The position numbers were made by a program, and so were the translations under genes. Below the pieces are notes generated by a model. It saw only the letters and a list, made by a program, of their open reading frames with translations. It was not told the DNA's origin and made no database searches. A stretch of DNA of 46,324 nt, the filler included, from Jimgerdemannia flammicorona (lineage: Eukaryota): the NCBI GenBank assembly GCA_003990765.1. It is 2 parts of 2 records of this genome, joined end to end, with 100 filler letters (N's around TTAATTAATTAA, not from the genome) between each part and the next. Parts side by side here need not be neighbours in the genome. Positions count along the whole stretch, not along the records: positions 23,215 to 46,324 come from RBNJ01001157.1; 1 more part is not named here. One strand, written 5' to 3'. Shown here one piece after another: positions 4,576 through 45,975 of this stretch. The number at the start of each line of letters is the position of its first letter. Within the stretch, counting starts at the first letter, position 1.

Positions 4576-6110
4576 TATAATGGTGATCCCAGAATGATGA
4601 CATCAGCACAGGAGATAGTCTTTCCTTGCAAGCCACCAGATTGGAGCACAAGAAGATCATATGGCATATGAGATGAGCAATGATGACTAACTGTGAGTCA
4701 TTGTGATCATAGTATAGTATTTTGAGGAATATAAAAGAAGGATCAAGGAACTGCAATAGCAGCAATCAACAAGACCCACCAATCCCAAAATAGCTCAAAG
4801 ACTTACCACAAACAAAATGCCTGCTGCCCACCAAACCTCAAGATCAAGGAACCACCAAGATATCTCAGTCAAAGAAAGGATGTTCCAAGACATCAGAAGA
4901 GTCACTCAAGAAGGACTCCTAGTGTCAACCTGGGTATCAGTGATCCTTATCACTATATCCTCTACCACTATGAAATGGAAACAAGGATCACTATTGCTAC
5001 TGAATACCTCCAAATGTGGCAGGAGTACAAAATAGGAAACCTCCTCAGCTGGGAGTTCCTACAGGCCAGCCCTCAAGAGCTACAAGATGCCACTCCCATA
5101 GATATACATGAGGTAAGAACAGCTAAGAAGATCCATCAGATCTTCAGGCATATACCATGGTCAATCCCCAACTTGGAGTATGTTAGAGTCTCAGATTTCA
5201 GAGACCTGTCATCCCACCATATCAATGCACTAGAAGCCAGGGTGGCTACAGAAGCCCAGTCCACCAATGTCCTCAATAGTGATGAAGTAGAAGACTTCTG
5301 GCATCCCATCCTTCAGGACAACCCAGACCAATTTCTGTAAGGATTGATCTCAGTATTCCAAGGCCCAAGCATCCAGGTTAGACCTCACCAAGACTCCACA
5401 TTTGTTCCCTATTTTGTGGAAGAGAACCTCATAGACTGGAGAGCTCCAGATCTCCTTGTTCTTGATTTCTCTGCCACCAAACATAATGATGTCATTGGCA
5501 ATGATGTCATCCTACATGATATCAAAGTACACGAAATGTGCAACCTACATGATCTTGACAAAATGTTCACAGACCTCATCTCCTTCGAAGACATCCTGAC
5601 CTCTGATGATGAGGATGAAGCTCCCATGATCCTGAACATTCTGCTCTAAGTCCCTTGTTACACTGAATAATGTCAGCACTGGCATTTGATGTAAGACTGA
5701 ATAATGCCAGCACTGGTATTCTGATATGACACCAAATTATACCAGCACCCTGAATCTGTACAACCATTAGTGCTGACTCTGGAACTTAGCAGTTTTTCCT
5801 ATCCTGGCATTTTATTTTAGTTATTGGAATTTATATTTAGCTTTATATCTTAGTAACCATTGAATTATATTTTGTTTAAATATTCCTCTTATTTCCTCTG
5901 AAATAAAGTCAGTCAAGTTCACTTACATACACTTCTTTACAAGCAATTTAAGAGATAACAAGACAGTTAAAGATAAGAAGTTTAAGGATTATAAGATCTT
6001 GAGAAGGCACTCCAATAAGAACTTGCTTATAACAAACTTGAGTTAGTCTAAGAGATACACCTTGAAGAGAATCTGGCATATTTGAAGGACTCAGTGACCA
6101 CTATATGATA
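4576..6110 (+). repeat. 3' LTR of copy A (~1535 bp)
   Basis: Aligns end-to-end with 8579-10113 and 15801-17338. Starts directly after the PPT and ends ATGATA (mutated GTGACA). Confidence 0.85.
4817..5649 (+). pseudogene. LTR-encoded accessory ORF, copy A (10-nt deletion near 4890, one internal stop)
   Basis: ORF-track pieces 4817.., 4975..5340 and 5344..5649 join into one protein by comparison with the two LTRs of copy B. Confidence 0.75.
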
Positions 6111-8832: not shown

Positions 8833-9615
8833 ATACCTGTTGCTCACCAAACCTTAAGGTCCAGAAACCACCAAGACCCCTCAGTCCAGGAAAGGATATT
8901 TCAAGACATCAGAAAAGCTATGAGGATCTATACAAGAAGAACTCCTAGCCTCAACTTGAGTACTAGTAACTCTGATCATTATATTCTCTATTACTATAAA
9001 ATAGAAATAAAGATCACTATTGCTACTGAATGCCTCTGGATGTAGCAGGAATATGAAATAGAAAACCTCCTCTACCAGGAATTCCCTCAGACCAGTCACC
9101 AAGAAATATAAGATACTACCTCTATAGATATATGTGAAATAAGGACAGCCAAGAAGATTTATCAGGTCTTCAGGTATACACCATGCTCAATCCCCAACTT
9201 AAAGTATATTAGAATCTCAGACTTTAAGAAACTATCAGCCTGCTATACTAATGTACTGGAGGCCATAGTGGCTACAGAAGTCCAGTCTACTATTACTCTC
9301 AATAGTGATGAGGTAGAAGAGTTTTGGAATTCCATCTTTCAGAACAATCTAGATCAATTTCTGCAAAGATTGATCTCAGCATTCCAAGGCCCCAGCATCC
9401 AAGTTAGATCTCCCCAAGACCCCACATTTATTTCTTATTTTGTGGAAGAGAATGTCATAAATTGGAGAGCCTCTACCACTACTGAATGTGATGACATCAT
9501 CAGCAATGATGTCATCCCACATAATATATACAAAATGAATAAAACATTTATGGATCTCATTTCCTTCAATAGTAATAAAGATGAAGCCCCCATGGTTCTG
9601 AACATTCTGCTCTAA
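8833..9615 (+). pseudogene. LTR-encoded accessory ORF in the 5' LTR of copy B (260 codons, frame intact)
   Basis: Start mutated ATG>ATA. Single frame to TAA at 9613-9615 with only two internal stops (TAG 9043 for TGG; TAA 9109 for CAA), both sense codons in copy A. Confidence 0.8.
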
Positions 9616-15800: not shown

Positions 15801-17338
15801 TGTAATAGTAATCTCAGAATGATAACATTATTACAGGAGACAGTCTTTCCTTATAAGCTATCAGATTGGAGCATAAGAAGATCATACAGCATAACTCACC
15901 CAGGCTATGAGATGAGCAATGATGACCAACCATGAGTCATCATGACTACAAGATAGACATCTTGAGGAATATAAAAAAAGGATCAAGAAACCACAGTAGC
16001 AGCAACTCAAACAAGGCTCACAGAAATAGTTCAAAAAGACTTACCACTAACAAAATGTCTGCTACTCACCAAACCTTGAGGTCCAGGAACCACCAAGGCC
16101 TCTCAGTTTAGAAAAGAATGTTCTAAGACATCAGAAGAGCTATGAGGACCTACACAAGAAAGACTTCTAGCCTCAACCTGGGTACTGGTAACTCTTATCA
16201 TCATATCCTCTACTATCATAAAATGGAAACAAGGATCACTATCACTACTGAATACCTCTGGATGTGGCAGGAATATGAAATAGGAAACCTCCTCTGCCAG
16301 GAATTCCTTCAGGCCAGTCACCAAGAAATATAAGATGCCACTCCTATAGATATATGTGAAATAAGGATAGCTAAGAAGATTTATCAGATCTTCAGGCATG
16401 CACCATGATCAATCCCCAACTTGGAGTACTCTAGAATCTCAGACTTCAAGGAACTGTCAGCCTGCTATACCAATGTACTGAAGGCCATGGTGGCTACAGA
16501 AGTCCAGTCCACTATCACCCTCAATAGTGATGAGGTAAAAGAGTTCTGAAATTCCATTCTCCAGATCCAGATCAATTCCTGTAAGGATTGATCTCAGCAT
16601 TCCAAGACCCCAGTATCCAGGTTAGACCTCCCCAAGACCCCACATTTGTTCTTTATTTTGTAGAAGAGAATGTCATAGATTGGAGAGCCTCCACCACTAC
16701 CAAACATGATGACATCATTGGCAATGATGTCATCCCATGTGATATATGCAAAATGGACAAAATATTCATGGATCTCATTTCCTTCAATAGTGACAAAGAT
16801 GAAGCCTCCATAGTTCTGAACATTCTTGCTCTAAGTTCTTGGTGATACTGAATTCTACCAGTATCCTTTTTCTGTATAACTGTTATTCTTCTGGCATTCT
16901 GATCTTACATAACTCAGAAATTCTTCTGGTATTCTTTTTCTATACCACTGAGATCTACTGGTATCCTGAACTTATACAATCATTTGTACAGATACTTGAA
17001 TTTGTACTTACAACTGTAGTTTTCTGTATTCTAGTATTTTATTTGATTATTAGACTTTATATTTAGCTTTATAACTTAGCAACCATTGAATTATATTTTG
17101 TATAAATATCTCTCTTATTTTCTTTAAAATAAAGTCAGTCAAGTTCACTTACACTCAATTCCATACAAGCAATCTAAAAGATAACAAGACAGTTTAAAGA
17201 TAAGAAGTTTGAGGACTATAAGACCTTGGGAAGGCACTTCAATAAGAACTTACTTATAACAAACTTGTGGTTAGTCTAAGAGATATACCTTGAAGAGAAT
17301 ATGATATATTTGAAGGACTTGGTGACTACTATATAATA
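15801..17338 (+). repeat. 3' LTR of copy B
   Basis: Direct repeat of 8579-10113, differing mostly by transitions. Confidence 0.88.
16055..16834 (+). pseudogene. LTR-encoded accessory ORF in the 3' LTR of copy B
   Basis: ATG at 16055 (MSATHQTLRSRNHQ...); same protein as 8833-9615, with stops, a 4-nt deletion near 16564 and a 1-nt insertion near the end. Confidence 0.75.
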
Positions 17339-26619: not shown

Positions 26620-27890
26620 TTATAGTCTGAACTTTTCTAAGCCCTCAACCATTTGCACCACGCGATGAATCGAAAGCATGTCACTAGTTGGGACGAAATT
26701 GTTTGTATGACCTTCGCCATTTGTATTGCTTTTGCGATTGATATCCTCCCCGATAGTTCGCCGAAGAAACGAAAACTCGTCTAATATACCAATCGCGGAA
26801 AGAACATCCTGTTCAGCTGTCTCCTTAAGGGATCCACGTAACGGTTTCCGAAAAAGTGCCAATGCATCATGTTGTCGTTAGAAAAGGGATGCTGGTATTG
26901 CATCTGGTTGGAGAAAGGCGCAAGCTTGGAGATTTCGAGTTGCCAATAGATTTTGCTTCTTCATTCGATTGAATGACAACTTCCACACAGTAGCGACTTT
27001 CTCCTCGTAGGCGCTCGGATTGCTGTGATCGCCGCCAGTGAGCAACACTTTAGGAATTTTGTAATCAACCTCAGATAACCTTTAAAAGTTGTTTTAGTTC
27101 ATTCAATGTATGAACGAGCAATGTTTATGGCGAGAGGGAAACGATCGAGCTTTGTACAATGCGTTGTGCATTGGTTATTGTAGCATTCGCAAATGGAGAT
27201 CGTGACCCAAGCAGGAGAGAAAGGCCTGCTCGTTAGTCATCTTGTTGACTCCGATTACCGTGGCCCATGAAGAAGGAATATGATTGCGAGTTGCCACGAT
27301 AACGTCACCACCGGTTACTAGAATATAAGGGTCTACATCATTGGCATCGTTCATGTTATCTAAAAGCAGCCAGCCGGTCTTCGTTTCAAGCCATTCGCTT
27401 AGCCGAAACATCGCCATCGCCGGATCTTCAGCCTCGTTGAGTATCCCAAGTTTCTTTGCCAGGCTTCTGAAGGAATCCAGAGTCACCTTCCTACCATCAA
27501 CGCGGAGCCAGAAGATGTAATGTTTCGGCACCAGTAACAAATTGCAGCATAGTTTCAGTTTTCCGACACCTTTGAGGACTACCGGCAGGCGTATGTCTTT
27601 CGATTGGTTTCCATGGATCGCTGCCAGGATCTTTTCCATGATATCCTCTCGGCCTACGAATCAGTTTGTGGGCTTGAGCAGAACTAGGAAAATTTTCCTA
27701 TTTTCGATGATGGCGCTGTCGACTGGTGTGGAATTGTAATTATTGACAGTACCGGGTGTTGAAAAATATAATAGCTCAGTTATCAGTTTATCAGTTATCA
27801 AAATTCGAATGTACATAATACACAGATAATGTACCATAGGATACTGCTCCACCAGATTCGACAATATTACCAATAGGTCCGAGAAACGCG
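26620..27890 (-). pseudogene. Fungal NLR-like NB-ARC pseudogene
   Basis: FVGRED (~27660), truncated Walker A (VLKGVGKL), IFWL, Walker B WLLLDN, DVIVATRN, FPLAI (~27140, GxP-like), ILDEFSFL..SIHRVVQ (winged helix/MHD-like). Stops and frameshifts throughout. Confidence 0.8.
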
Positions 27891-29192
27891 TCCCCTGTGC
27901 GTGCTAACAGCATCAACATTATTTTTTCACGTTTTGCACCAAATCTTCAACGGAGTCTCCCTGCCAGTAGTCGGCAACTGGCTGCTGGCAAACGCAGTTC
28001 GGGTGGCCATGTTTGTGTTGTTGCTTTCTGAAGACATATCTAGTTATTGTGGAATACCGTTAGTTAGTTGTGTTACATGTACCGGACGAGATGATCTTTG
28101 TAGACCTTGTAGTAACTTACTTTGTTGCGGTCAGGTTGTGAGCGGCAATTGATTATTCAATTCACACATGGCTGAGAAATTCAACTTGTCTTTATCGCTC
28201 CTAGGCGGACCTAGCTTAGCGCACAGACAATGGAAGGTTGGTTCTTGCCGATGGAGGTGATGTCGTCCCTGAGACTAAGACCATTGTCGGATTCCTGTTT
28301 CGCATATGGATGATTCGTAAGAAAAGGACTTCTATGTGAATGTCTAAATTGTGGCGCAGTGATATAAAAGGGACAATGTGTTCTGGCTTGGGGTGCATAC
28401 ATTCTGCCTAATTCACGTAGTCCATACTGATTCCTCCGGATTCTTGTCTTTCCGGTTGAGCTCTTATTCCGATAAGATGATTAAGAGCTGTCACTATTTC
28501 ATTCCATGCGTCCTCCTATTGTTCTACTCCTTTGCCAACTAACACTACGTAAGAACGCCACGCAATCGTAGTGGATGGTGAAATGCACGTTTAGAACGAA
28601 ACATGTAAATAAAATAAAATATTTTTTGCAAGATTTCGACGCGTCAATCCCAAATCACGTACCTGCACCCTCGGCCAAGCTATGCTTGCAGCCAAATCCA
28701 AACCGCGCTTATTTCCATCGGTGAAAAGGCTCAACGTATGCACGCCAAGCCAGGGTTGACAAAACCTCTCCGCCGGACACATTCGACGTGTATGTTTTGG
28801 TCCGCTTATCGCTCGCTTGCTCCACACTCTGCAAGTGCACCATATACATCTGCGTATCGCGACAAAAAATCTAAGCGATAACAAATTTAGGGTGACATTT
28901 TGTTCACAAATCACGACCATTTTTGATCACGAAACTAATAAATAGACAAACCACTACAGAAAAATGTTCTAAGAAAGCTAATACGTATATGCAAGGGAAT
29001 AAGCGCGATAATAATATGCAAGAAATGTAATGTGTGAATCATAATATCTTAGTGCTGATGTACATGGGAACAGATGCAATATTAATGTGCAAATAATATG
29101 CCATAATCGAAACACAACAAAAATAAAAATAAAAAATAAAAAAGAGAGACACATATATTAACAAGAAAGTAAGGGATATTATTTTCGATACA

Positions 29193-30300
29193 TCAGGTTC
29201 CGCTTCTACTCTCTTCACTCCACCTCATGTCATCCACGTCATCATACACTTCTTCACCTTCGCTGTCATCCACCTCCATTTCGTCCTCCGTATCCTCGTC
29301 ATCCTCCTCTTCTTCGTCATCCGTGTAATCCATATCCATGTCATCCTCCTTCCCCTCCTCCTCCTCCTCCTCCTTCTCCCCCTCCTCCTCCTCCTCATAA
29401 TCCATATCCTCCACGTCGTTGTATAATCCCCTCCCCTGTCGTTGCCCTCCATTCCATCGATCACCGCGCCCGCACCATCCGCGCCCTCACCACCAATATG
29501 CCCGTCCACCATACCGCAATGCTCCACACGTTCCATGTCCTTGACCTCTACACCCTTGCCCTCAATGTTTTTGCCATCCCCAGCATCACCACTCACTCCC
29601 TTCCGGCATCGTCATCCCTCCCTCATCCTCAGTGTCCATGCCCTCCCCACCATACCCCTCCCTACTGTCCTTGCCCTCATCGCCATCACCCTCGTCAATC
29701 CCTGCCATCACCCTCCACTTTCTTGACCTCGCCCTCCCCGAAATCTCCCTTCCCGCCCTTGTCCTCCGCGTCCTCACCATTCGCATCTTCCACGGTCTCG
29801 CCCTCACCCTCTTCACCTTTCTCACTTCGCCATCCTCCTCATACTCGCCCTCCGTATCGTCCCATCCTCGCCGTCTAGTACTTAAATGCCAGCGACCCGA
29901 CGGAAAGCTCCACGACTTTGGCATTGTCTGAGATGACAACTTGCGAACCGACTTTCGATTGATCCCAATGGAGATCTTGGCGTTTGCGATACCCGGACGG
30001 GTGTCCAGTTGGACACACGGTGTTCTTGAATACGTGGTGACAAAAGGCCATGTAATTTGGAGATGTCTCCGCCAACCCGTCGACTGCCTCCGTGAGGATC
30101 TTCAAGCGATGCGGGCACACAAGAGTGAGGCCCACATACTCCATCATTTTTAGTAGCAATGATTTATTTCCCAATCGAATTTTACCCTCGCAACCTGTAG
30201 CTAACTCTCAAAAAAAAAAAAAAAAAAAAAAAAAAAAGGTGCAAGGGTGTTCCATGCACTCGTTTTCGAGACGCCGGAGAATCCTGCCAGCTCTAGCCGG
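29193..30300 (-). pseudogene. Degraded gene with a long Gly/Asp/Glu-rich acidic C-terminus
   Basis: ORF pieces 29875..30174, 29586..29939, 29225..29596 and 29193..29414 form a frameshifted continuum ending in a D/E tract. The poly(A) at ~30210-30237 could be an intronic pyrimidine tract on the minus strand. Confidence 0.45.
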
Positions 30301-32844
30301 ATAGAAGGTTAACGAAAAAAATGGCCTTCCCTTTCCAAGAGTCCAGAGGGAATCGTGGCTCGATAACCATCGCCGCAATGTGCATCGCAAACCACACCCG
30401 GGCCATCCCGTATGACACGTCCCATAATCTACTTTGCACCCGTTGTCAAATGGACGATAGCCTTTCTCTGACTTCATGGAACTACCGCACTGCCCCCTCG
30501 CAGCCTCGCCGGCCGCTAGCTCTGCCACCGGACAGCTCCGAGAAGTAACCCTGCCTGAGACAGCAACACAGAGACAAGCCTTCCACTCAATTATTAAATT
30601 TACCTTCAGTCTATGTCAAGCGCCATCACGACCATATGTGCATAATGATCACTTCCAACGATTGTCAGTGACATCGTAGAGGACCCAACCAAAGGATTGT
30701 TCGCGGCAGTATTTATACCTCATGTGATACATTGTAAATGGTTGCAACCGGAGCTGAATACCCACCTTGTCGTTGCCACTTCAGACGATGCAGCCCGTGA
30801 GGTTCTCGATATGGTCTGCCAGCTGAAAATTTCTCGAAAGGGCTCGTGTTTTACGAAACAATTCGACCATTGAAGACGATTTGGAGGCCATTTTACGAGG
30901 TTTTAAAGAAATTCATGATGTATTTAAGATTGAAGTGTGTAGGGGGAGGTTTTTCTCGGAAGAAGTGTTCTGATCTGACATGTAATAGCTGAAAATTCCT
31001 TGTATTATATTCAATCGTTGCTCGGCGGATATCTTTGCTCTTCGGTGAATGGGTAAAGCCTTTGCTTATCGGTAAGTCGTCGCTCCGGTTTACCGTCTTT
31101 CTGCTCGGCGCCCAATCTTTGCTCGGAGTTCGTTTTGTTTTTTATATTTTTAGTAATTAATATAGCTGTGTGTGCACGGTGACGACTCTCTGGCAAACAC
31201 GCTTGCATTTGGCAATATCTGAAACAATTTTCACGCTACATGCTATTGTAAGAACCCAATCAATCTTTGGTCAGCATGCAACAAGATGTAAGCTCGGAAC
31301 TGGGTGAAGAGCGAAAAACTAGGTATGCTGAACAGGAATTTGCGTGACTCCATTTTGTGATATTGGATCAAGTGCCAGTGCGATCACGTGAACATTAACT
31401 GCAGTTTACATCCACCAAAGCTATTATCTATGACATGATTCTTGGCACCAACTGGATGAAGGAAATGAATATAGTTGTTGATATTGGTCAACAAGTACTC
31501 AAGTTTGACTATCAAGACAAGAAGTACAGAGTTAAGGTGACCAGCCATGAGCAATCAAAGAAGAAAAAGAAGGTCACTATTCAGGAAGAATATGCTAGTA
31601 GTGAAGAGTTTACCACAAAGAAGGAAGAATAATCTGAAGATAGAAATGATCCCAGACTTAATCCCCAAATTAACCTGATAGATGGCAGACCAGAAGATAA
31701 TGTATAGGCCAAGAACACTGTCTCCATTACCATCAGAGCCATCACAGGAGAGATCAAAGGATGCCCCACCTGCCTCAAGAGACACAAGTGCTCTGAGCAC
31801 TCCTCCAAGATCATTGGGACAAGGAAATCGCCTGGCACAGCCTGCCCAGAGTGCAGAAAGAAGAAGAAGAAATACAGACATATTCCAGAAATACCTGCAG
31901 CCAAAGCTACAGAAGTACAAGTGATTTGGGGCCAAGAATCATCTGAGGAAGAAGAAGTTTCTGACCAAGAAGTTTCTGAATAAGAAGTACCTGAAGAAGA
32001 AGAGGTCTCTGAACTCATTCCCTAGGATGACTCTTGCTGGACACCACCTGAAGATAATGACCCTTGGAATATGGAAGAAGGACCCAGCATAATCTCCATT
32101 ATTCCCAAGAAAGAAACTCACCAAGAGAGAGCATTTCAGCTGAGAAGATGTCTACACTAAATGGTCTTCTACTCTCCCTAAGACTACTGCTATCAGTGCT
32201 ATCTACTAGACCAACAGGAGAGATAGAGGCCCCAGAGACCAGAACCTCTGAATATAGTTATATAGTTAACTACCTTCCAAGAGGTCACTACCAAGCTGCA
32301 AAGTCAATTCAGAGGACAAGGCTTCTTTACTTGAACAGAAATATATCTATTGTCTACCCTTCTTCAAACTTATGACTAAGATAGATACTGATTTCTGAGA
32401 TAACAAGAGATCAATAATCAGGAATATCATTTTTAAGCAATGGAATATTGTAATCATAGAAGACACCTAGACTGCTGAGACTGCAAACATCAGAAGATTC
32501 ACCTCAGTCATGATGTTGCAATCCACACATAAAAGAGAGGAGACAATAGAAGCCAGATCTGAAAAAGCCAGACCAAGAAGCCAGGAAGAAGGATCCTTAA
32601 GATCTATAATTTAGGAGAAGACATTCTAGCTCTTATTAGACATGCAATCCATCAAGAATGGGTAGAAGATGCCACCAACTTTATGGAAGCCCTAGACTCA
32701 ACAGAAAGAAGAGGAATCAACTACCTTCAAGATCCCTCCACTGGAGCCAGATGGCCACACCTCAATCTCAGAGCTTGGAGGCTCTCTATTAGTAGAGCTT
32801 CAGCCCAAGGATAGTCCAAACTCAGCAAGAATGTTGCCCAGTAT

Positions 32845-33243
32845 GCCCTGCTACATCCTAAGGCCAAACCCCTGACCAAAGCTTACTCAGAAGATATAGG
32901 GTATGATATTCACAGTCTGGAAGATAAATCCATCAAGTCTGGAAAAACATTCATGATCAGAACTGAACTAGCTATGCAGCTACCTTAAGAAACTTATATA
33001 CAATTGACCTCAAGGTCTGGACTTGCCAGACAAGGAATAACTATAGAAGGAGGAACCATTGATCCAGGATATACAGGCAAAATCAAAGTCATCCTACACA
33101 ATAATAGTGCAGAATGGCACTGAATTATTAAAGGACAGAAGATTGCCCAAGCAGTCTTTATGAAGGTCAAAATCCCCCAATTATAAGAAATCTCTGAACT
33201 GACTGAAGGAAAAAGACAAGCTAAAGGATTTGGAAGTTCAGAT
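32845..33243 (+). pseudogene. dut: dUTPase domain of family 2
   Basis: LLHPKAKP..DIGYDI, SRSGLA, GGTIDPGYTG, GQKIAQ, RQAKGFGSSD in one frame. Confidence 0.93.
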
Positions 33244-36122
33244 AAGAAGGAAGTATATCTTCTTCAAGTCAACCATCTCAAGAGGAATATCCCTCAGCAA
33301 GTATACCACCAACCAGTCAAACTACACAAGAACCTCATCATGGAACCTGGAAAACAAATCACCTTCAAAATCTTTGTATCACCTGACCTCAGAAATCTCT
33401 TCTTTGAACCCAATAAAGATATCCCACACTTGGATATAGAAGGACACACATTTCCTAATAAGATGAATCTAGTATATTCCTGAGCAACCAACCAAAGTTG
33501 GGAAACCATCATCTTGCCAAAAGGAACTATCATAAGATATCTAGTGTCTTTTCTCAACTGAACTTATAGAGAAGTTTATAAACTAAACTTATTGAGAAAT
33601 GGCAAAAGGTTCCAGAAGAAATGAAAGACCCCTCTGTGACCCAGGAGATAGTAAAGCCTTCTACCAACATTGGAGAAGAATTGATACTCCAATAACAGCA
33701 ATAACTAGCAGAACTTCTCAACAAATTTCAAGATATCTTCATTACTGATTATGACAACCTGCCATATAACCCATCATATCACCATAGCATAAATACAGGA
33801 AATACAACACCCATCTGGCAGAAACCCTATAGAATACCCCATTACTTAAAAATATTCAAAAAGGAGCATATTCAAGAACTCTTAAATAATGAAGTCATCC
33901 GACTCTCTACCAGTCCCTGGGCCAGCCCTATACTTATTATACCAAAGAAAGGGAGATAGAGACTCTGTGTAGATGACAGAAAACTCAATTCAGTCACCAA
34001 AAAGGATGTCTATCCTTTGCCAAGAATCGATGACCTTTTGTATCAGTTACAAGATACCAGATACTTCAGCAGTATGGACCTCTTTATAGGATTCCATGAG
34101 ATCCCCATGGATTCCAAAGACATCCAAAAGACAGCCTTTCTTACTCTAGAAAAACTGTTTGAATACCTTCAAATACCTTTTGGACTTTACAATACACCCC
34201 CCACCTTTCAGAGAATGATGAACTCAGTCTATGCCCCTTTGATCTACTACTGTCTGATCATATATATGGATGATTCCAACATCTATTCAGCCAACTTTGA
34301 AAAACATCTGTACTACCTGGAGGAATTCTTCAAGCTCACCTACAAGAACTACCTGAGACTCAATGCTAAGAAATGCTACTTCAGGAAACAGAAACTTGAA
34401 TTTCTTAGATTTATAGTTTTGAAAGAAGGAACCCATGCAGACCCAAAGAAAACTGAAAAGATCAAAAATTGGCCAGTACCCAAGACTCTGAAGGAAATAT
34501 TATCATTCCTGATGCTGGTATTCTACTACAGAAGATTTATCAAGGACTTTGCTCAAATTACCACCCCAATCTGAATTCTTCTCAAGAAAGAAGTACTATT
34601 CAAATAGACAGAATCATAAGAAAAAGCCTTCAAAGAACTCAAGAACTGCATGACTATAGTACCAATCCTTGTATACCCCAATCTACAAAAGCCATTCATC
34701 TTGTATACAGATACTTTCAAAGATGGCCTTGAAGCAGTTCTAGCTCAAGAAGGATCTGATCAATAACACTATGTGATAGCTTATATAAGCAGAGCTATCA
34801 ATCAGCAGCAGATGAACTATGGCAGTACCAAATTGGAATGTCTTGTAGTCATATGGGCAGTCACCCTGTTCAAGCATTACTTCATTGAAAAAAGGTTCAC
34901 TCTGATTATAGACCATGTAGCCCTCAAATGACTATTCAACTGTAAGGAACCTACCAGAATCCTAGCCTACTGGATTCTTATTCTTCAGAATTAAAAAATC
35001 ACCATTATCCACAAAGCAGGGAAAGCTCACAACAATGTTGATGTACTTTCCCACCAGCCCCAATAAATCAGAAGAAGGGTGTTCCAAGGAACTATACCCT
35101 AAAGGAAGCTCCTCAGACCATCAAGGTACAAGAAGATCTCATTCAAAAAGAACACCAGAAAGCCCATCAAGGACAAGCAAACATAGAAGAAAAGTTGCAA
35201 ACAATACACCAACATTGGCCTAATCTCAGAACATAAGTCTGGGACATACTCAAGAAATGTAACATCTGCCAGAGATACTAAGAAAGAAAGAACTACCAAG
35301 CACTACTGCAACCAATTATACTACCAGACAACATCTTTCAGAGATGGAGAGTAGATATAATTAGACCTCTACCAGTTATACTAAGAAGAAACAAATACAT
35401 CCTTATATTTGTAGAACATCTGACTAAGTGGCCCAAGGCTTTCCCAATAGAAATCACAGATGCTTTAACCATTATAGGTCTCCTCCATAGACTCACACTC
35501 AGATATGGACCCCCAGAAGAACTCATCTCTAACTAAGACACAGAATTCATCAATAATATAATCACCAGTTATACCCAAATTCACAAGATCCATCTCAAAT
35601 AGACTACATCATACCACCCTCAGATCAATGATATGACAGAAAGAATGAACCAGACTATCAATAAAGGACTTGTCTAAGTCAATCCTACCAATTGGGACCT
35701 TTGCTTACCTGAGATGCTATGGGAGATTCGGAATACCCCTGCTGCCTCTACTAAACAAAAGCCATTTGAAATGATGTTTGCTAAGAAAATCAGAACTGCT
35801 GACCAAGAGAATATCAGAGACCTTCTCAAGAAGGCAGAAGAGTTATATAATCAAGCCTGAGCCCAGATTATCAAGGCCCAAGAAAGACAAAAAAAGTACT
35901 ATAATCAGAAATAGAAGGATCAGAAGATCAAGATTGGAGATCAAGTACTAGTTTGGAGAAGTATGATTGAAATGAATTTTGCTGCCAAATTGGAGACCAA
36001 ATGGGAAGGACTTTATCTTATATACAATATCTGAGGAATCAGCATCTATTTAAGAAGCATAGATAGATGGACCCTCAGGATATCAGTATACATCAACTGT
36101 CTCAAGATATACCTCTCCCATC

Positions 36123-36635
36123 ATGAATCAGACAATTGATCAGCACCTCCAGACCCTTGTTCTAAGTTCATTCCAATCACTCACAGTTTCCCTTCCACAA
36201 TTCCAATAAGTCAATAGAAACCCCCTACAGAAAATCTAGACCCATCAAGAGAACCTCATCTTGACCAGATATTTACTGTAAGTCCACTAGCTGCAGGCCT
36301 ATTATGCAATTGGAGAACAATTGCAGAACCTCCCAGCAGCATATCTGACCTACATCAGAAACTCCACTGGTCTTACTCAGAAAAATACCACTGCTGCAGA
36401 CAGATTGTACACAATCTACAAATGAAATTTTCCAGCCTTAACACAAGTACAATTTCTTCTGAATGATATTTAGAACATGAACTCTGCCATCTACTGGAGT
36501 ATCATCAACTATGTCAAAATTCTGTTTCCAGAGGAAGAAGAAGAACCTGTTGAGTGGAGTAACTCTGATCCAAATGAAGATACTGGTTCAGATATTGATG
36601 CTGAAGATGCTTATGCATATTGAAATGATGACTAA
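36123..36635 (+). pseudogene. 3' accessory ORF of family 2 (170 codons), homologous to the LTR ORF of family 1
   Basis: The ATG overlaps the pol end (pol stop 36137-36139). Single frame with transition-type stops; YYAIGEQL..AADRLYTIYK..NDI*NM motif; acidic tail. Confidence 0.72.
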
Positions 36636-36663
36636 AGGATTGTCTGAGGGCAGATCATTCTTT

Positions 36664-36675
36664 AGTGGGGGCTGA
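36664..36675 (+). other. Polypurine tract of family 2
   Basis: AGTGGGGGCTGA directly before TGTGACA. Confidence 0.7.
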
Positions 36676-38094
36676 TGTGACAAGCAACAGAATGGTATTA
36701 CCAAAATCATAAATTAGCTACATACTATATCTAGTACACTAAGCAACTAAGACTGCTTTACTGTGCCAATCTATATATTTAGCCAGAGATACTAGAAACA
36801 GTATGTTTACCTATACCCTCAAGAAATACTTACTATAGTTAGTAATCTATAGTTAGCAACATAGTAATTCATAGTAACCACAACTATATAAAATACCCCA
36901 GAGATAAGAGTAAATAAACCTCAGTCCAAAATTGAAGCAAAAGACAAGTCTATCTACCATATTTCAAGAGGAACTCTACAGCTATTGCTAAGAGATTGTA
37001 CTTTGAGAGAAACTCTACAGCCACTGCTAGGAGATTGTGAGCTTATTTTCCCACTCTGGTCCACTTTTCAATATAAAGAATGAGTCTAAAAAGTTGAAGC
37101 AAACCAAAGAAGCCTCTAAAGATTGAGCATTGGTCCCTTTTCCCCACTTCAGTCCACTTTCTGATATAAAGATTGATTGGTATACTTACCAGACTAAGCC
37201 TGAAGAATCTGAGTTTGCCATCTAAGTTTATAAAAGAACTTCACTGCCATTTCTAAGTTATCTATATTCCCAGAAAGCCTAAGAGAAAGCTGCCCTGCTT
37301 AAGCCAGTTTCTGATACAACTTTGTAGTAAATTCATTTGCATAAATGAAGCCAGTCTTTGACACAACTTTGCCAAGAGACTCTTTCCCAAAAGCCACCAG
37401 TTATATTTCTCAGTTGAAGCTACCAATTCAGAAAGAATCTATGACATCCAAGTTATTTCTCAGAAGCCCACCAATTTAAGAAGAATCCATGACATCTGAG
37501 TCATTCAAGTTACCTGAGTTATCTGAATTATCCACAACATCTGAGTTAGTCATTTGTTCCCAGTAAGTCAATACAGAAGAATCTGCTGCTAGTATAATTT
37601 CCAGTAAGCTGCTATTTCAGAGAAACTACACCTAAATCAAGTTATCTATCAGAAATTGCATACTTTTGGAGATCATCGCACTATATAGAGATCACTACAC
37701 TACATAAGACTGTCACCCAGAAATCACATACTTTTGGAGATCACTGTTACCTAAGAAGGAAAACTGCTAAATTGCCAGATCATCATGTATAAGGAACTTA
37801 TCATACTATATATAAAATTCTACTAATTCCCAGTTGACCCAAGAAGAAAACTCATTTACAAATTATCACTACACTCAGAGAACTATCCTAATAAAAAAAT
37901 CAACATACAAATTGACCACTACACAACTAGAAGAATTACTATTATATCCAGATTGACTATTATACCACTAAACACCAAGTATCTCTAGAATCTTAGAACA
38001 TTTTGTTGCTTTTGACAAAGTAACTGGAGGCTCAAGCCAAACTACATCAACCCCCAACCTTGTAATTTATCTCAATTGAGCCAGGCACATTATA
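36676..38094 (+). repeat. Probable 3' LTR of family 2
   Basis: Starts TGTGAC after the PPT; TATATAAAA ~36886 and AATAAA ~36913; internal duplications; ends ATTATA (transition-mutated GTCACA). No second copy is available to confirm the end. Confidence 0.6.
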
Positions 38095-40436
38095 ATATTA
38101 TAGAGTTATAGAGGTCCATCATTAATACTATCTTATATATTAGGATTATAGCTATCTATTAGAATAATACTACTATCTTATATATTAGGATTATAGCTAT
38201 CTATTAGAATAATACTACTATCTCCTTATAGATCTTATATATTTTATCTAAAGATAGATAAAACTCTCTTATAACTATATTAATCAGAAAGCTCAGAAAT
38301 TATTATTATTGAGTAAGTTCTTAAATATACTTTATTAGATATAAGAGAAATCTCAAGATCTCTAGATATTTCTAGATAATTGTTCTATAAAGAAGAACTT
38401 TATCTCTTATAGAGACTAGAAGATATATATTATATATAGTAGATAAGATAAATGCTATACTTCTGAAGAGATACTAGAACTACTATCATTAACTTAGTTT
38501 AGATCCAGAGAGTAGAGGATAGTCTAAATAGCATTATATAGAACTTTTAGTTAATCTTTCATTATTAGAAGGCTATAAATATATGATCTGCTAAATATAG
38601 AGAAATATAGAGATATATATTCTTAATATTGATCTTAATGAAATAGTTGCTAAATTATATTATATAATATAGAGTTTGAATATCTTTTATCTTAAAGTAC
38701 AAATACTATATAAACTTATTCAGTAAATATATATTAAGATAGATATAATACTTATTAATTTGAAGAATAGTAAAGATATTAGAAAAGAAGAGCAGTTCTT
38801 TTAGTTGAGCAGAATAAATAGTATTCTTATTCTAAAACTTAGAGATAGTTATATTTACTAATATCTTTTCTATTTCTAATATATGTTTCTTATAGGAGAA
38901 GTGAGGCTGACTCTAAAGAGAGATCAGAGAGCTTATCTATTTAAAGTAGATCATATTATATACTATATCAAAGACTCAGTGGTCAATATTCATATCTACT
39001 TAGATAGTCTCTGAAATCTTAGTTAGTTATATTTCAATCTTAGTAATAATATTTAAAATCTTGAGAGCAATTATACAGAGCCTTCAGGGTAAGTGGTAGG
39101 CATTGATATGTCTTATTCTGTAGATTAGTTCAGATATTGGCCTCAGCTAGTTATGCTTAGATAGCAGTACTCTGAGTTGGTTAATGTATATTATAGTAGT
39201 TGAGATAGTAATTATACTGAAAGCCATTTCTCTGACTATGGTCTCTAGAAGAAAAAGATCTATAGTTAGATAATTTATATAATAGTTTAGTAGTATTTAT
39301 TAACTTTTTTGACAATAAGGTAGTATTTTTAGTATTTGATATTCTTATAGAAAGTCAGATAAATTTAGTACTAAAGAGGTCATAGTTATATTTAAAGCTA
39401 GAAGTTAAGATATAGTAGATAGAAATAAGAGTGGATAACTATCCTACAAACTTAGTAAGCTTGATATAGTAGTAAATTCAGATATATTTTACTTTATAGA
39501 AACTGATTTAGAGAGTGTTATATATTTTCTCTACTAGAGAGAGAAAGACAGTATTATATAGACCAGCTTATAATGATAAAGGTTAGCCCTATTAGCTCAT
39601 AGTTTAAAAGTATAAAGAGTGAGAGTAATTAGCTAGAGAGTATTATCAATAGCTCATTAAGTTTTAGTAAGAACCTTGTTTGCTTCTTTAGCTATCTTAC
39701 TAAAATCTTTAATAAAGATATTATTGATAGATAGAATATAGAAAATACTCTATAATGGCTTAGAATTATGATAGAGAAGTTTCTAAAAACTAATAGCAGT
39801 GAGGTATATATTGATCTAGTCCTCAGAGATAGTATTATTAAATATGAGAGAAATGTAGTATATATCTCCTAATATCTCTGATCTTAGTAATAGTGAGGAA
39901 TTTGTTATTACTACTATTAACATCATTGTTCTGAAGATTTATATTATTGAAGTTATTATTAATAAATCTATAGAGATATTGAAGAAAGGAAATATCAGTA
40001 ATATATTATCATTTATACTAGTTTATGACCTCTGGATTTAATAAAGAAGGGCAGAGGCTGATTATGACATTCTTAGTAACCTATTGAAGGAATTTAGTAT
40101 ACTTGATTAGAGTGGCCTAATTATATTACTATTGTTGAGATTTATCATATATAATTAGATATATATATTATAGAAAGAGATAAACTGTCAAGCTTTTAAA
40201 ATAGCTAAAAGACAGACTCTGTAAAAGTTAGAAATATTTTTACCATATATTTTATATTGCCAATATTTCATATATAGGTCTTAAACAGATAAATTTATAT
40301 ATTACATAAAACATTACTATGTCTAAAAAAAAATAAAGTATGCCAATATCTTCAGAATAGCAAAAACTAACTCTAAAATAGTTCAGAACTAAGTAATTTT
40401 TAATTACATTAGCTATAGTAATAGTTAACTATTAAG
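38095..40436. repeat. Unclassified, extremely AT-rich hypermutated repeat remnant
   Basis: CpG-free, TpA-rich, no ORFs; no motif recognised. Confidence 0.5.
38126..38223. repeat. Perfect 45-bp tandem duplication
   Basis: TACTATCTTATATATTAGGATTATAGCTATCTATTAGAATAATAC at 38126-38170 and 38171-38215, plus a partial third copy. Confidence 0.9.
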
Positions 40437-40898
40437 TATAATAGTCCGAGTTTCTTTAAGAGAAAGTAGCTAAATTTTGTAGTTCTGGTGGATCTAAAGT
40501 AGCTTGAAGAGATATTTATAGGTTCAAGTATTCTTAAAGAAATTCTGAAAGAAAATATTCTGAGCTTTATTTAAGCAGAGAATAAGGATATTTGTATAAG
40601 ATCTGAAAGAAAGATCTGGAAGAATCTTAGAAAAGAAAAGTAAAGCTAAGAAATAGATTTTCAGTAAGAATGACTAATAAAATTCTATAATATTTTCAAA
40701 AGTTCTATAACTAGCTAAAATAAGATACTTGATACTAAGAAAATATAAAGATCTAGTAATATCTTGATACTAAGAGAAGATTTCTAGATATTTAGAAGAT
40801 ATTGAAACATAGTAAAATATTCAAGAAAAGATAAGAGAAGACTAGAAAAAAGATGTAAAAAAGTACTAAGGCTAAAATATAACTGTAAAATTATTACA
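40437..40898 (-). repeat. 3' LTR of the chromovirus (~462 bp); PPT at 40899-40911
   Basis: Direct repeat of 45990-46324; the minus strand reads AAGAAGAGAGAGA then TGTAAT. Confidence 0.88.
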
Positions 40899-41196
40899 TC
40901 TCTCTCTTCTTAAGAACTAATATCCTCATTGAGTTTTTAGATTATATAAGACTAAATATACTTAATAAAAATTTCTCAAACTTATATCAGCATATTGGTA
41001 AAGACTGGCTATTCTCATATAGGGTAGAGGATCTGTTACTAGACTAACCAACTGAGAGAGGTTCAAACTCAGCTAGTAGCTTTATTTCAGTAAACTTCTA
41101 ATGCATAAGGCACTGGTTATTACCATAGGTCATCAATAATCTAAGAAAGTCACTATAGAGATTGAGTAATATATTTTGCCTTAAAGTCTTAAACTA

Positions 41197-41320
41197 GTTC
41201 TTGAGATTAACTAGTAATTCTTAGATAGTATCATATTTAGAATAGTCCATCCACTTGATCAAATATTCAAAATAATAGTAGTGGATTCATTTGTTAAGAA
41301 TTTTCTTAACTTTATACTTG
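41197..41320 (-). pseudogene. Integrase chromodomain
   Basis: KYKVKKILNK*...EYLIKWMDYSKYDTI*ELLVNLKN corresponds to EYEVEKILDKR..YLIKW.GY...TWEP..NL after reverting transitions. Confidence 0.85.
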
Positions 41321-44300
41321 ATATGGTCTTCAATAATTACAGGGGTAGATAGCTTGAGAATTTGACTAGGATAGAGTGGTGACTGGCTTCAGATCTTGAG
41401 ATATGATATATAAAAGACTAGATATATCCTCATGATTTCAGGTAACTTGAGATAGTAGGAGGAAGCTAAGACTTGTTCAGTAATCTCAAAGGGTCTAATA
41501 TATTTGGATTAAAATTTATTTAACAGGTAGTTGACTTGAGATTATATCTTGAAGTTCTCAGTAGATAGTAGGACTTAGTCTCCAATAGTATATATGATAT
41601 CATAGTGCTTCTTATTAGTATATTTGGCTTAGTGTTATTGGGCTTTCTGAAGATTTATGATGGTAATCTTGAGTAGTTCATTTATCTTATCTATGAGGTT
41701 TCTAGTAGTAGAGACTTATATTTAACTATTTTTCTTAAAAGAGACTAAACTTGTAGAGGTCTTGGGGTCTTAACTATAGAATAGCCAAAAGAGAGAAAGA
41801 TCAGTAGATGATTGAACAGTATTATTGTATATAAATTCTATATACGTCAAATAGTAGTCCCAATTATCTTATTTATAAAAAATATAGTTTCTGAGTATTT
41901 TCTCTAATATTCTGTTCATATACTGAGTTGTTTATCAGTTTGTAGATAGAAGATAATAGATATGGCAAATTGTATTTCTAGAGTCTTAAAGAGAGTTTTT
42001 CAAAAGTAACTAGTGAACTTGAAATTATGGTTACTGAAAATTACTTATAGTAGACCATAATAATGATAAAAGATAGACTTGAAGAAGATTATTGCAATCT
42101 CAGATATAGTAATATTAGTAGTGGTGAGTTTGGCAATCATAGTCTTGATTAGATGGTCAATAAACATAATGATGATATTGATACTAAATTGAGTTCATAA
42201 TAGTTGAGTTACAAAGTCCATTGTAACTTACTCAAATTTCTTAATTGGAATTAGCAGTAGTTATAGTAAACCAGCTGATACTTGGTTGATAGACTTGTTG
42301 CATTGATAGAGATTATATCTAGTAATATAGTTCTTGATTTTCTTGATCCTATTTGACTAATAGTAGTAATTTTGGATGTTTTTAACAGTTTTCTCAATTT
42401 CAAGATAACTGATAAGTGGGGAGTTATAGTATTCTTATAGTATCTTATAGTATAGATTTATGTTGTCAGATAGGTAGACTTTGTCTTAATAATAGATTAT
42501 ATTATTCTCAATAGTATATGTATCCTTGAGCTCATTTGAGAAAGCTCTAATAGCAATAGTATCTTCTTTATAAGCTTATCTAATTTGGTCTAGAAATTGT
42601 AATACTAAGGTAACTTGTATGATTGTAGTAAGGTCTAAATATTTAGATAAGATATCTGGTACTACAAGTGTTTTGCCAGACTTGTAGATAATCATTGGAT
42701 TGAAAGTTTGAAGTTTAGACTCTACTTGGCTTATAGATATAATAGGGTAGATTAAATATTAATATACTTGAGTGATTGATGATCAGTAATAACATCAAAC
42801 TTAATATTTTCTAGATAGTATTACTAGTGATCTAGTATATATATTATTACTAGTAACTGCTTTTCATAGGTGGCTAGTTTTTGTTCAGCCAGAGATAACT
42901 TGCAGAACTTAAAGGCAATAGAGTAATGTTCTTTATCATCATCTTGTAACAGAACTGCTCTAATGATAAAATTCAACATATCTATAGTAATAGTAAATTT
43001 TAGACTTAGATCTGCATTGTATAGGACTAGAGCATAGATCAGGTAGTTCTTGAGTTCTTGAAAGGCTTGTTGACAAAAGAGGTCTCAGGTATAGAGTACA
43101 TAGTGATCAGAGTTAGAGGCTTTCTTTATGAGATTAGTCAGTGGCTCAGCAATACCAGAAAAATTCCTGATAAAGTAATGGTAGTAGCTAGCTAGACTAA
43201 GAAAGAACCAGAGTTCTATGAGGTTTGAAAGAATAGATCATTCTTAAATTTTCTCTATCTTGTATAGATCTACTTGGATTCCTTATACAGAAAAAATATA
43301 GCTAAGATATTTAACTTATTCTTTAAAGAATTCATACTTCTTGAGTTTTATATATAGTTTATATTCTCATAAAATCTCTAGGACTACTTAGATATGCTTG
43401 AGGTATTCTTCTTTAGTTGCATTAAAGATCAGAATGTTGTCAAGATATACTAATAAGAAGATAAATAGTTAGTCTTTAAATATCTTATTTATGAGAATCT
43501 GAAATATAGTAGGTGTATTGATAAGACCAAATACAAGAACTAGGAATTCATTGAGTCCAAAGAGAGTTATAAATATAGTCTTGGAGATATCTTCTGACTT
43601 GATTCAGATTTGGTAGTAATCTGACATAAGGTCTAGCTTGATGAAGTACTTGGCATTTTTAAGATTATCAAAAATTTGATCAATTAAGAGTAACAGATAT
43701 CAGTTCTTGACTTTAAGCTTATTGAGTACTCAGTAGTCTATATATATTTACAGAGTATTATTCTTCTTCTTGATAAATAAGACTGATAAACCATAGGAGT
43801 ATTTGCTTGGTTGAAAGGCTCCTCATATAAGTAACTCTTCTAGTTTCTTCTTGACTGCTTCAATTACAAGAGATAATATATAATATATTTAATTTTACAA
43901 TCAACTTCTTATATAGGTAGTAGACTAGATAGCTTATCTGAAAAGATATTTTTAAATTCTTCAAGAAATAACTTGATGCTTTTATTAATTGATAACTTCT
44001 TGTCTTATTTTTTGAGATAGACTATTGCAATAAAGATATATACTGTCTTCTTGAGTACTTTCTTGTACAGTATTGCTAATAATATTGCAATCTGGATTTT
44101 ATTCATAGGTTTGTCTGTCTTGATAGTAATATTGACTCCTTTCTAAAATAGGGTAACTTTATTCTTATACCAATCAATATTTTGATTATGTTTGATAAGT
44201 CAGAGTTTTCTTAAAATCAGGTTATAATCTCCTAGTAGTACAATTTTGAAATCTACTTATTCCCAATATTTCTAAATCTCGATAGATAGTTTGGCAGCAA

Positions 44301-44514
44301 TTGACTCAATAGAATATAGTGTACCATCTACAGTAACTACACCATCATTCTTAAGTACTAATTTGATAAGGATCTTGAGGTTTTCAATAAGGTTCTAATT
44401 GATGAAGTTTCCTATAACTTTACTATTTATAAGTACTTGAACTTTCTTCCCTTTAACTAGATCTTTGAAAATGAGTATAGCTTGAGCTCAGTTTTCAGTA
44501 AGACTTGCTACTTA

Positions 44515-44930
44515 ATCAGTATTATCAAAATCTTTCTGGTCTCACTTAGTTTTGAGTAGTTCTTGGACTTCTATAACCTTGAGTTGACTGGTTTTTTCTA
44601 GGATCATTTTTATAACTTGGTCTCCTTTCTTAACTATATAGTCTTGATTCTTCTAGTTGACAAGCAAGACTTAAACCTATCCTCAATAGTCTGAGTCAAT
44701 GATACTAGTATCAATATCTAAATGATATTTAATACTAAGTCCTGATTATAGTATAATTCTAACATAATATCCTTCAGAACATTGGACTGTAATTCCAGTA
44801 GACACTAGAGTTTAGCTTTTAGTAAGAATAGTAACTTGCTTAACAGAGTATAAGTCAAGATCAATGGTATCTTCTAATTGATATTGAGAGATCTAAGCCT
44901 TTAAATGAAGTTTCTTAATTTTGAGTTTAG
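44515..44930 (-). pseudogene. dut: dUTPase domain between the Gag zinc knuckle and protease (chromovirus)
   Basis: LKIKKLHLKA*ISQY, DTIDLDLYS, LVSTGI, RIIL*SGL, IDSDY*G, KGDQV, *DQKDFDNTD (RGQKGFGSTG); in frame with both the CCHC knuckle and the protease. Confidence 0.88.
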
Positions 44931-45975
44931 ATTGACTAATAGTAGAATTGGTAGATATATCTTTGAATAATATAGTAACTAGTTTTGAGAGTTTGCTGGT
45001 CTTTTTAGGACATTTAGTTACAATGTATCCTGTTTGGTAATAGAAGAAACAAGTTTCAGATTTCTTCAAATGATCTTTTTCTTCTATAGTAAACTTGGTA
45101 TTTTTCTATTTATAGTATCTAGATCTATTGGTACTGAGCTAACTACTTTGAGTTGGTTTTTGTAATAGTTCTCAAAGTAATTCTTCTTACAGTGCTCTAG
45201 TTTAAAGTAGTTGCTAAAGATGATAATATCAAACCTATTAGTAATTCTCATAGCTTCGTTAAGGTTCTATAGCTTCTCTAGCTCAACCTTGACTTATATG
45301 TTTCCTTTCAGGCCTTAGATATAGTAATCTATCTTTTTGTCCTCAGCTATTACTAGTAGTTTGAGTAGAATTGACAGAAATTATATATTGTAACTTTGTT
45401 TAGATTTGAGTTGCTTGATGTTCACTAGCTTATCTTAGACTAGCTTGATAGTATTAGTAGGCTTGAACTGCTTGTAAAAGGCCTCCTTGAAAGATGTCCA
45501 ATTTTGGATTTTTGTATCTAAATAGATAGTAGTAGTTATAATATAATTATACCATCAAATAGGTATATTTTCTTAGAGGAGTGTAGTGGTAAATTAGACT
45601 TATATGTTTTCTTCTATTCTTATAAGTTCAAAGTATTGGTCTAACTGAAAGGTCTATGTATCTGTGGTCAGTCCTTCTCAGTGACCATTAAAGATATCTA
45701 GTTTGAAGCTAACTAGTATAGTAGTAGAATATAATATAACAGTAGTCTTTATTTTCTAATAGTCTATTTGTGTTTGAAGTTATCAAATTTAATAGGCTAT
45801 AGTGGTAATCATTTCTTCTAGATTAACTCATAGTTCTGTACCATCTGCTTCTTCTATAGCAAAAGGGTCTAGACAGTAGACTGATTCTTTATAATTTATT
45901 TTGATCTCATATAACTAGTTGTAACTGGTTTCTGAAATTATATAAGATTTCTTAATAAGGTAAGATATAATGATA

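Follow-up and report, generated by a model that had tools for sequence, protein, structure and literature searches.

The window analyzed here, meaning the whole stretch of 46,324 nucleotides from Jimgerdemannia flammicorona (GenBank assembly GCA_003990765.1), joins two parts of two records with 100 filler letters between them, and positions 23,215 to 46,324 are derived from RBNJ01001157.1. It contains two families of gypsy retrotransposons, called family 1 and family 2 in the following, and the subject of this work is the open reading frame (ORF) at positions 36123-36635, which is located between pol and the 3' long terminal repeat (LTR) of the family 2 element. Judged from its sequence and its relatives, this region is a dead, transition-mutated copy of a genuine 171-amino-acid accessory gene, hereafter ORF3, of a Ty3/gypsy element that carries a dUTPase in its pol. 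The protein defines an unnamed family with about ten database relatives, no Pfam family and no solved structure. Furthermore, we consider it somewhat probable that ORF3 is a very distant homologue of an ORF in the U3 part of the family 1 LTR. The complete explanation, which combines a real ORF3 gene with a putative mode of expression, a putative adaptor role and the distant homologue in family 1, appears to us marginally probable.

ORF3 in the family 2 element

Translation from the ATG at 36123 leads from MNQTIDQHLQTLVLSSFQSL... to ...AEDAYAY*NDD* (asterisks mark stops) with the terminal TAA at 36633-36635, and it is identical to the reading given in the original prediction. The copy in the window is interrupted by seven internal stops (codons 29, 39, 53, 56, 101, 117 and 167). 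With the X-masked translation as query, 5.8 billion proteins were searched and five matches were obtained, with E-values from 6e-62 to 1.5e-34 and two of them full length. These are the intact 171-amino-acid protein P0004 and the 172-amino-acid protein P0005, to which the window copy is 65% and 63% identical, in both cases over 99% of the query length; tblastn located the ORF3 locus in the window with an E-value of 1e-59. P0004 and P0005 are open over their full length and share 75% identity. When 1.84 billion cluster representatives were searched exhaustively with a profile, five proteins were obtained at E <= 0.001 and the more divergent relatives P0016-P0019 were added, of which P0016 is 50% identical to P0004, begins at the same start and, with 144 amino acids, stops short of the C-terminal end. 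The start M[NT]QR[IV]D is found in seven of the nine database relatives; in P0007 the motif is internal, at residue 42, and P0019 is a C-terminal fragment. The C-terminal end ...Y[PA][YH]WDDD is present in all three relatives that reach it (P0004, P0005 and P0019). As full-length relatives are open and share the same start and end, ORF3 is or was a gene.

The element in which ORF3 resides belongs to the Ty3/gypsy class. Pfam searches of the read-through frames revealed that its pol contains the end of a protease (PR), a dUTPase (32866-33240, E 6.5e-25), a reverse transcriptase (RT; 33939-34409, RVT_1, E 4.7e-23), an RNase H (34608-34991, RT_RNaseH_2, E 6.4e-26) and an integrase (IN) with a zinc domain at 35126-35278 (Integrase_H2C2, E 5.2e-05), and found no Chromo match after the integrase core, neither in the read-through frames nor in ORF3. 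The accessory ORF has sense orientation, follows pol and precedes the polypurine tract (PPT)/3' LTR, ending 40 nt before the LTR starts. The predicted placement, overlapping the pol stop and preceding the PPT, is thus borne out by the coordinates in Table 1, with a single LTR copy as reference. This LTR is delimited by an inverted repeat of 19 nt (36676-36694 and 37999-38017, 84% complementary), and directly past its end the G+C content falls to about 0.24. A self-comparison of the window detected no second copy of 36001-38600 and hence no 5' LTR copy of family 2. Inside and just past the LTR there are also short tandem or near-tandem repeats with units of 39, about 47 and 45 nt (36960-37037, 37422-37552 and 38123-38212, respectively).

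Additional genes of fungal LTR retrotransposons are poorly charted, and ORF3 offers a clear gene position together with a possible stop-restart junction. PMC2864245 draws extra ORFs of unassigned function ('add. ORF') for some fungal gypsy elements and reports a dUTPase between PR and RT in the basidiomycete element PosPlaTy3-5, and passages of PMC5408684 on dUTPase-bearing elements of bdelloid rotifers describe diverse and repeatedly captured ORF3s, including coiled-coil ones. In line with the Ty3/gypsy ORF3s as portrayed there (PMC2864245; PMC5408684), the family 2 ORF3 is a sense ORF between pol and the PPT/3' LTR, is family-specific, has no Env features and belongs to an element with a dUTPase in pol. 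In contrast to the known types, it shows no Pfam or PDB match and no GDSL, DEDDy or transmembrane features. The fungal 'add. ORF' may or may not correspond to the family 2 ORF3 (PMC2864245), and in a narrow full-text search neither the ORF3 family nor a fungal gypsy element with an ORF inside its LTR was found to have been described.

Similarity to the ORF in the family 1 LTRs

Family 1 is represented in the window by the 3' part of one element (element A, 1 to ~6110) and by one full element (element B, ~8580-17338). Its LTRs are about 1.53 kb long, and the three copies are alike from ...ATAATGGTGATC to ...CACTATATGATA. The PPT AGAAGGAAGAT lies directly 5' of the two 3' LTRs (4566 and 15791); upstream of the 5' LTR of element B the DNA is unrelated, and a primer-binding-site-like TGGTGCC follows this LTR at 10117. 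The original prediction had placed an ORF of family 1 after the PPT and inside the LTR, and this ORF is indeed contained in all three LTR copies, where it starts ~250-300 nt past the LTR start; in the element B 3' LTR its frame is broken near 16564. Seven intact relatives were recovered (six by single-sequence search and one by profile search), for example P0009 with 247 and P0010 with 271 amino acids. The N-terminus of these two is rich in arginine (9-10 K/R among residues 1-40), and in the family 1 ORF it is combined with a domain from the middle to the C-terminal part that is highly conserved (...WNPILQDNPDQFLQGLISVFQGP...YFVEENxIDWR...) and with the conserved end ...LISFED...DEAPxxLNFLL. 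Neither the N-terminus nor the C-terminal domain nor the end has a Pfam or PDB match. After the integrase of family 1, a family 2-like ORF could be traced only as HMM (hidden Markov model) matches at noise level (15292-15627 with an independent E-value (iE) of 2.7 and 4082-4231 with iE 12).

The dUTPase domains of family 1 (12390-12713 and 1256-1534) are located between protease and RT, an uncommon PR-dUTPase-RT order which is shared with family 2, and as both elements also have long LTRs, the biological prior for homology of their accessory genes is reasonable. The pol genes are far apart, with 36-42% identity in RT-RNase H, 26-31% in IN and 32% between the dUTPases. This distance speaks against a common accessory gene, but it also means that homology, if it exists, is expected near the detection limit.

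In agreement with the original prediction, the two ORF regions show no likeness in DNA (blastn with word size 9, nothing at E <= 1e-3), and a relationship is suggested by protein comparisons that include the intact relatives. Comparison of a 9-row with an 8-row alignment including divergent members using hhalign gave a P-value of 0.0047 over 75 columns in the register proposed originally, pairing YAIGEQL with YEIGNLL and AADRLYTLYK with VKKIHQVFRH. The score of 25.5 was reached by none of 265 column shuffles (mean 13.9, sd 2.5, maximum 24.8) and in the two block-shuffle controls by 0/145 and 1/146, so that a single one of 556 shuffles attained it, and reversed profiles scored 15.7 and 15.9. 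Subset profiles, among them sets without window-derived rows and disjoint sets, had the same register on top in eight of eight comparisons (P 0.004-0.097), and the signal was strongest with the most diverse sets. Among single proteins, the most divergent members, P0016 of family 2 and P0013 of family 1, matched each other in BLASTP with E 6e-4 over 40 residues (...ATKRIHALYRQ...LNDIQKMT versus ...LARRVHQIFQH...TSDIQELS) and reached a Z of 5.1 in Smith-Waterman alignments, in which Z exceeded 2 for 6 of 20 intact pairs. The BLASTP matches of P0005 with P0009 (E 0.68) and of P0004 with P0010 (E 1.5) are in the downstream register of the original prediction, without being significant. Searching the six-frame translation of the window, the family 2 HMM had its best non-self match in the family 1 LTR ORF at 9019-9300 (iE 0.31), in frame and in register, and a second LTR copy (16229-16513, iE 3.8) ranked about fifth; the family 1 HMM had its best non-self match in the family 2 ORF (36084-36224, iE 0.51). 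Hence, the downstream matches pointed out before (YxIGxxL, TAKKIHQIFR/AADRLYTIYK and SDF/NDI) recur in the same register with the intact relatives, but their significance is borderline. Altogether, the likeness recurs consistently, but as a signal it appears weak, at about the 1% level.

A considerable number of results weigh against homology. The ungapped alignment over 64 amino acids on which the original prediction relied has 7-11 identities and BLOSUM62 scores of -10 to -3 on the three real copies from the window, and 490-500 of 500 shuffles align equally well or better. For the sequences aligned there, the score is thus not above the shuffled controls, an outcome which the original prediction itself had named as refuting it. 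BLASTP between the window copies of both families found nothing (E 20), and Smith-Waterman alignments of the three family 1 copies with the family 2 copy gave Z of 0.5-1.0, with 88, 90 and 143 of 500 shuffles reaching the observed scores. The first profile-profile comparison, with 6 versus 7 rows, resulted in E 0.11 in a different register, and also for the 9-row versus 8-row alignment hhalign assigned a probability of only 7.5%. Fourteen of the 20 intact pairs remained at Z <= 2, three of them with negative values, and P0016 showed no similarity to P0010. Moreover, no family 1 protein was among the matches of the family 2 profile in the 1.84 billion representatives, only five of which were at E <= 0.001, although the ~15 billion proteins that were clustered into this library are the ones that had yielded the family 1 proteins.

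In addition, the match of the family 1 HMM is non-colinear, since it places the N-terminus of family 2 opposite positions 140-173 of family 1. The same likeness is seen by tblastn, where 36084-36224 corresponds to family 1 residues ~158-195 with ~38-41% identity over 39 residues (E 0.08-1.7), and it pairs DQxLQxLxxSxFQ of the family 2 N-terminus with the DQFLQGLISVFQ motif of family 1. A shared Q/L-rich composition could account for this match as well as homology does, and it may have arisen by chance, from an internal repeat or through a rearrangement. The two families diverge in their C-terminal halves: family 2 proteins end ~25 residues past the aligned core and are devoid of the C-terminal domain and the ...LNFLL end, whereas family 1 has an extra conserved domain of ~75 amino acids and a different tail. 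AF2 models of both proteins are helical and contain a long helix that terminates at YxIGxxL. Their mean pLDDT values (family 2, 47.2; family 1, 38.9) make them too poor for a fold comparison, which cannot decide on homology because of the low score of the family 1 model. The boundary of the family 2 LTR is defined by one copy, as the window is without a 5' LTR of this family. Finally, all similarity tests use descendants of the same two ancestors and are therefore not independent, so that a chance likeness between these ancestors would be inherited by all of them; the comparisons comprised two profile-profile and about 25 pairwise ones, and the ORF pair was first picked by eye.

The main competing explanation is that ORF3 is real in family 2 but unrelated to the family 1 LTR ORF, that both families gained their 3' ORFs independently, and that the weak likeness reflects a similar make-up (helical, Q/L-rich, with an acidic tail) together with chance. 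We regard this as a serious possibility, although it falls short of being probable. It accommodates the chance-level scores of the window copies, the blank first profile comparison, the missing family 1 protein in the exhaustive search, the non-colinear second match and the differing C-terminal halves and tails. It also fits the different start contexts, an ATGA on the pol stop in family 2 and an ATG ~250-300 nt into the LTR in family 1, as well as the repeated and independent capture of ORF3 genes by LTR retrotransposons reported in passages of PMC5408684. It has more difficulty with a score attained by one of 556 shuffles, with a register that is constant in all eight subsets while the signal rises with diversity, with the match between P0016 and P0013, and with the fact that the HMM of each family has its top non-self match in the ORF of the other. 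Homology of the two ORFs, as originally proposed, is plausible but weakly supported: the profile comparison with its controls, the constant register and the P0016/P0013 pair speak for it, and the chance-level window copies and the exhaustive search without a cross-match speak against it.

If the two ORFs are homologous, the shared part would extend from residue ~30 to ~145 in family 2 and from ~43 to ~167 in family 1. It would form a helical core of ~75-115 residues with YxIGxxL, followed by A[KD][KR][IL][HY]xx[FY][RK] and then [SN]D[FI], to which family 1 would have added its conserved domain of ~75 amino acids, the tail ...LISFED...LNFLL and the arginine-rich N-terminus. One old accessory gene of the lineage would then precede the PPT in family 2 and follow it in family 1. 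On the family 2 branch the gene would have been kept in the env position, starting on the pol stop (ATGA), and on the family 1 branch the plus-strand priming site would have moved upstream, so that the gene became part of U3 and was copied into both LTRs. This scenario of an ancient accessory gene that, in a fungal gypsy lineage with a dUTPase, stayed in the env position in one family and entered U3 after a shift of the priming site in the other is conceivable, though we would not call it the expected outcome. The original statement that the gene changed sides of the PPT presupposes homology of the two ORFs, and a crossing of the PPT, which is possible, must also explain the ~330 nt between pol and PPT and the ~250-300 nt between LTR start and ORF start in family 1.

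Accessory genes in or across U3 are familiar from sag of the mouse mammary tumor virus and nef of primate lentiviruses, where the PPT is inside the gene. The likeness is that a 3' accessory gene may be situated before, across or after the PPT, as proposed here for family 2 versus family 1. The difference is that sag and nef have no sequence relation to the ORFs described here, which belong to two distantly related families (36-42% identity in RT-RNase H) and are linked only putatively. If the link to the family 1 LTR ORF is true, the PPT/LTR boundary can move across a gene and a coding gene can persist in an LTR over long evolutionary times, as a retrotransposon counterpart of LTR genes of the sag/nef type, and this would bear on how sag and nef came to overlap U3. 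If it is false, ORF3 is an ordinary family-specific ORF3 which is present here only as a pseudogene.

The pol-ORF3 junction and the putative role of the protein

In the window copy, ORF3 and the end of pol overlap by 17 nt. A metagenome scan returned a single locus with this junction, contig L001, whereas related loci were found neither among viral contigs for either family nor, for family 1, among prokaryote genome contigs. L001 is better preserved than the window copy, yet it is also decayed, with three stops in 118 codons. Its pol stops directly after the ...KIGDQVLV...WEGPY... module and ends with ...KKYFPTLP followed by TGA, and the ATG of ORF3 shares three bases with that stop, forming ATGA. 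The two junctions are distinguished by a 4-nt length change just 5' of the ATG, and because of this difference the relative frame of pol and ORF3 is not the same in the window and in L001, while the ORF3 sequence is kept.

From this arrangement, ORF3 may be translated by termination-reinitiation at the ATGA overlap, and a spliced subgenomic RNA is equally possible. Coupled termination-reinitiation at an AUGA overlap is used by fungal victoriviruses (Totiviridae), which resemble L001 in that the stop of pol and the start of ORF3 share the ATGA. They differ in that there is a single intact junction here, the window copy overlapping by 17 nt in another relative frame, and in that no stable RNA fold is present at the ATGA junction of L001 (z 0.12 versus shuffles, 141 nt). 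The alternative, a spliced subgenomic RNA, is the usual route for ORF3s according to a passage in PMC5408684.

The position of ORF3 adjoining and overlapping the integrase end, together with a frame in P0007 that is open for 41 codons 5' of the ATG, could also suggest that the ORF3 frame belongs to pol as its C-terminal part, accessed through ribosomal frameshifting or separated by an indel, and is not a gene of its own. This is very improbable. In L001 the ORF3 frame has a stop seven codons 5' of the ATG, so that ORF3 is not a long frameshift extension of pol, and the pol TGA overlaps that ATG. Furthermore, M[NT]QR[IV]D is the start in seven of nine database relatives, the others being P0007 with its internal motif and the fragment P0019, the relative frame changes by the 4 nt with the ORF3 sequence retained, and the junction RNA is no more stable than shuffled sequences. 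That ORF3 was never a gene and that a frame merely happened to be open in the untranslated 3' part of the element, for which one could invoke the seven internal stops of the window copy and the integrase frame, which has fewer stops over the first ~125 codons when read past its stop, is scarcely credible in view of the full-length open frames of P0004 and P0005 at 75% mutual identity, the same start in a 50% identical member (144 amino acids, with the C-terminal end not reached) and the common start and end evidenced by P0004, P0005 and P0019.

With regard to the protein, no Pfam family was detected at E <= 10 (P0002 and P0003) or at E <= 1 (P0004, P0010, P0013 and P0016), and sequence searches of the PDB gave nothing better than E 0.29 for family 2 and no match for family 1. 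No membrane segment is present, as the maximal Kyte-Doolittle mean over 19 residues is 0.6-1.14 in six members and 0.94-1.14 in the family 2 proteins. The intact 171-172-amino-acid relatives without such a segment uphold the earlier description of a real, non-Env and helical ORF that occupies the env position in family 2. Isoelectric points of 4.5-5.2 mark the family 2 proteins as acidic, and the last 40 residues contain 16-18 acidic and no basic residues in the two full-length proteins and 10 acidic and one basic in P0016; acidic tails were seen in the ORF proteins of both families, as stated originally.

The AF2 model of the family 2 ORF3, built from nine sequences, consists of helices only and is of low confidence (mean pLDDT 47.2). 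An ESM Atlas model of P0004 reached a pTM of 0.68, and its closest structures are helical hairpins with a TM-score of at most 0.37, which is no real match. The ESM Atlas had no informative neighbor for either ORF (best structural TM-scores of 0.37 and 0.33 for family 2 and family 1, respectively). At least three neighbor clusters are common to the lists of both families (a 105-amino-acid hypothetical protein, DUF6192 and Closter_coat), but since the scores of family 1 (<= 0.83) are at a level often reached by shuffled proteins, these shared neighbors are a lead only. On the basis of these models and the composition, ORF3 is predicted to be all-helical with a strongly acidic tail studded with aromatic residues. 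It seems to be neither Env-like nor a recognizable enzyme, nor is it DUF1016-like: the faint likeness to DUF1016_N/YhcG domains that had been perceived by eye found no counterpart in Pfam at E <= 1 to 10 in six members. The accompanying idea of a DNA-binding regulator found no support either, since no nucleic-acid-binding domain was matched by the family 2 proteins, which are acidic; an acidic protein without a basic patch is unlikely to bind DNA. Instead, ORF3 might act as a non-enzymatic adaptor whose acidic, aromatic-bearing tail binds a basic partner, which may be a protein of the element or a host or chromatin protein. This adaptor role is a functional guess and, taken by itself, rather doubtful. 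A speculative functional analogy is CERV, an accessory protein of the C. elegans retrotransposon Cer1, which is likewise of gypsy type; CERV is reported to have a non-enzymatic post-transcriptional role (PMC10309623).

Annotated features and remaining content of the window

Table 1. Positions of the family 2 and family 1 features in the window.
Feature	Position	Strand	Basis and remarks
Family 2 pol, 5'-truncated	31350..36139	+	Pfam on read-through frames; stop TGA 36137-36139
Decayed family 2 accessory ORF (ORF3)	36123..36635	+	Translation; 171 codons including terminal TAA
PPT-like purine-rich tract AGTGGGGGCTGA	36664..36675	+	Read from sequence; adjoins LTR start, TG at 36676
Family 2 3' LTR, 1342 bp, TG...CA	36676..38017	+	19-nt terminal inverted repeat
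Family 1 LTR ORF, element A 3' LTR	4876..5646	+	tblastn P0009 residues 3-247, 75% identity, E 2e-119; LTR ~4577-6110
Family 1 LTR ORF, element B 5' LTR	8833..9612	+	tblastn P0010 residues 1-271, 64%, E 2e-110; LTR ~8580-10113
Family 1 LTR ORF, element B 3' LTR	16055..16827	+	tblastn P0010, pieces 16055-16564 and 16564-16827; LTR ~15802-17338

The repeats of the window are nearly devoid of CpG, with observed/expected ratios of 0.01 in family 1, 0.03 in family 2, 0.00 in an element resembling a long interspersed nuclear element (LINE) and 0.03 in the AT-rich region 38100-46324, and the ratio is 1.05 in the G+C-richer and presumably genic region 23215-31300. Repeat copies differ from each other mainly by C>T and G>A transitions. 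This pattern points to CpG-directed hypermutation or methylation decay of the repeats.

A third gypsy-like element, which is heavily decayed and AT-rich, is located on the minus strand at 40534-46324 and also, on the same strand, at 6100-8570. It includes an RT (43852-42767, 31% identical to that of family 2), an IN (41928-41566) and LTR-like repeats at 40534-40761 and 46076-46303 that are 83% alike; an HMM search of the six-frame window detected no ORF3 in it. A fragment at 8496-7782 which is related to this element shows 41-44% identity to the PR-dUTPase linker of family 2.

Directly after the 3' LTR of family 1, the LINE-like element occupies ~17500-23100 on the plus strand, with endonuclease and RT motifs in plus-strand frames and a very strong skew of G over C (+0.3 to +0.5). 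At its 3' edge, two runs of 44 N (23115-23158 and 23171-23214) mark the filler join. On the other side of this join, an ORF of 249 amino acids on the minus strand (23365-24114) has sub-threshold Pfam matches to a fungal Zn(2)-Cys(6) cluster (E 0.0035) and to a FOXP coiled coil (E 0.0002).

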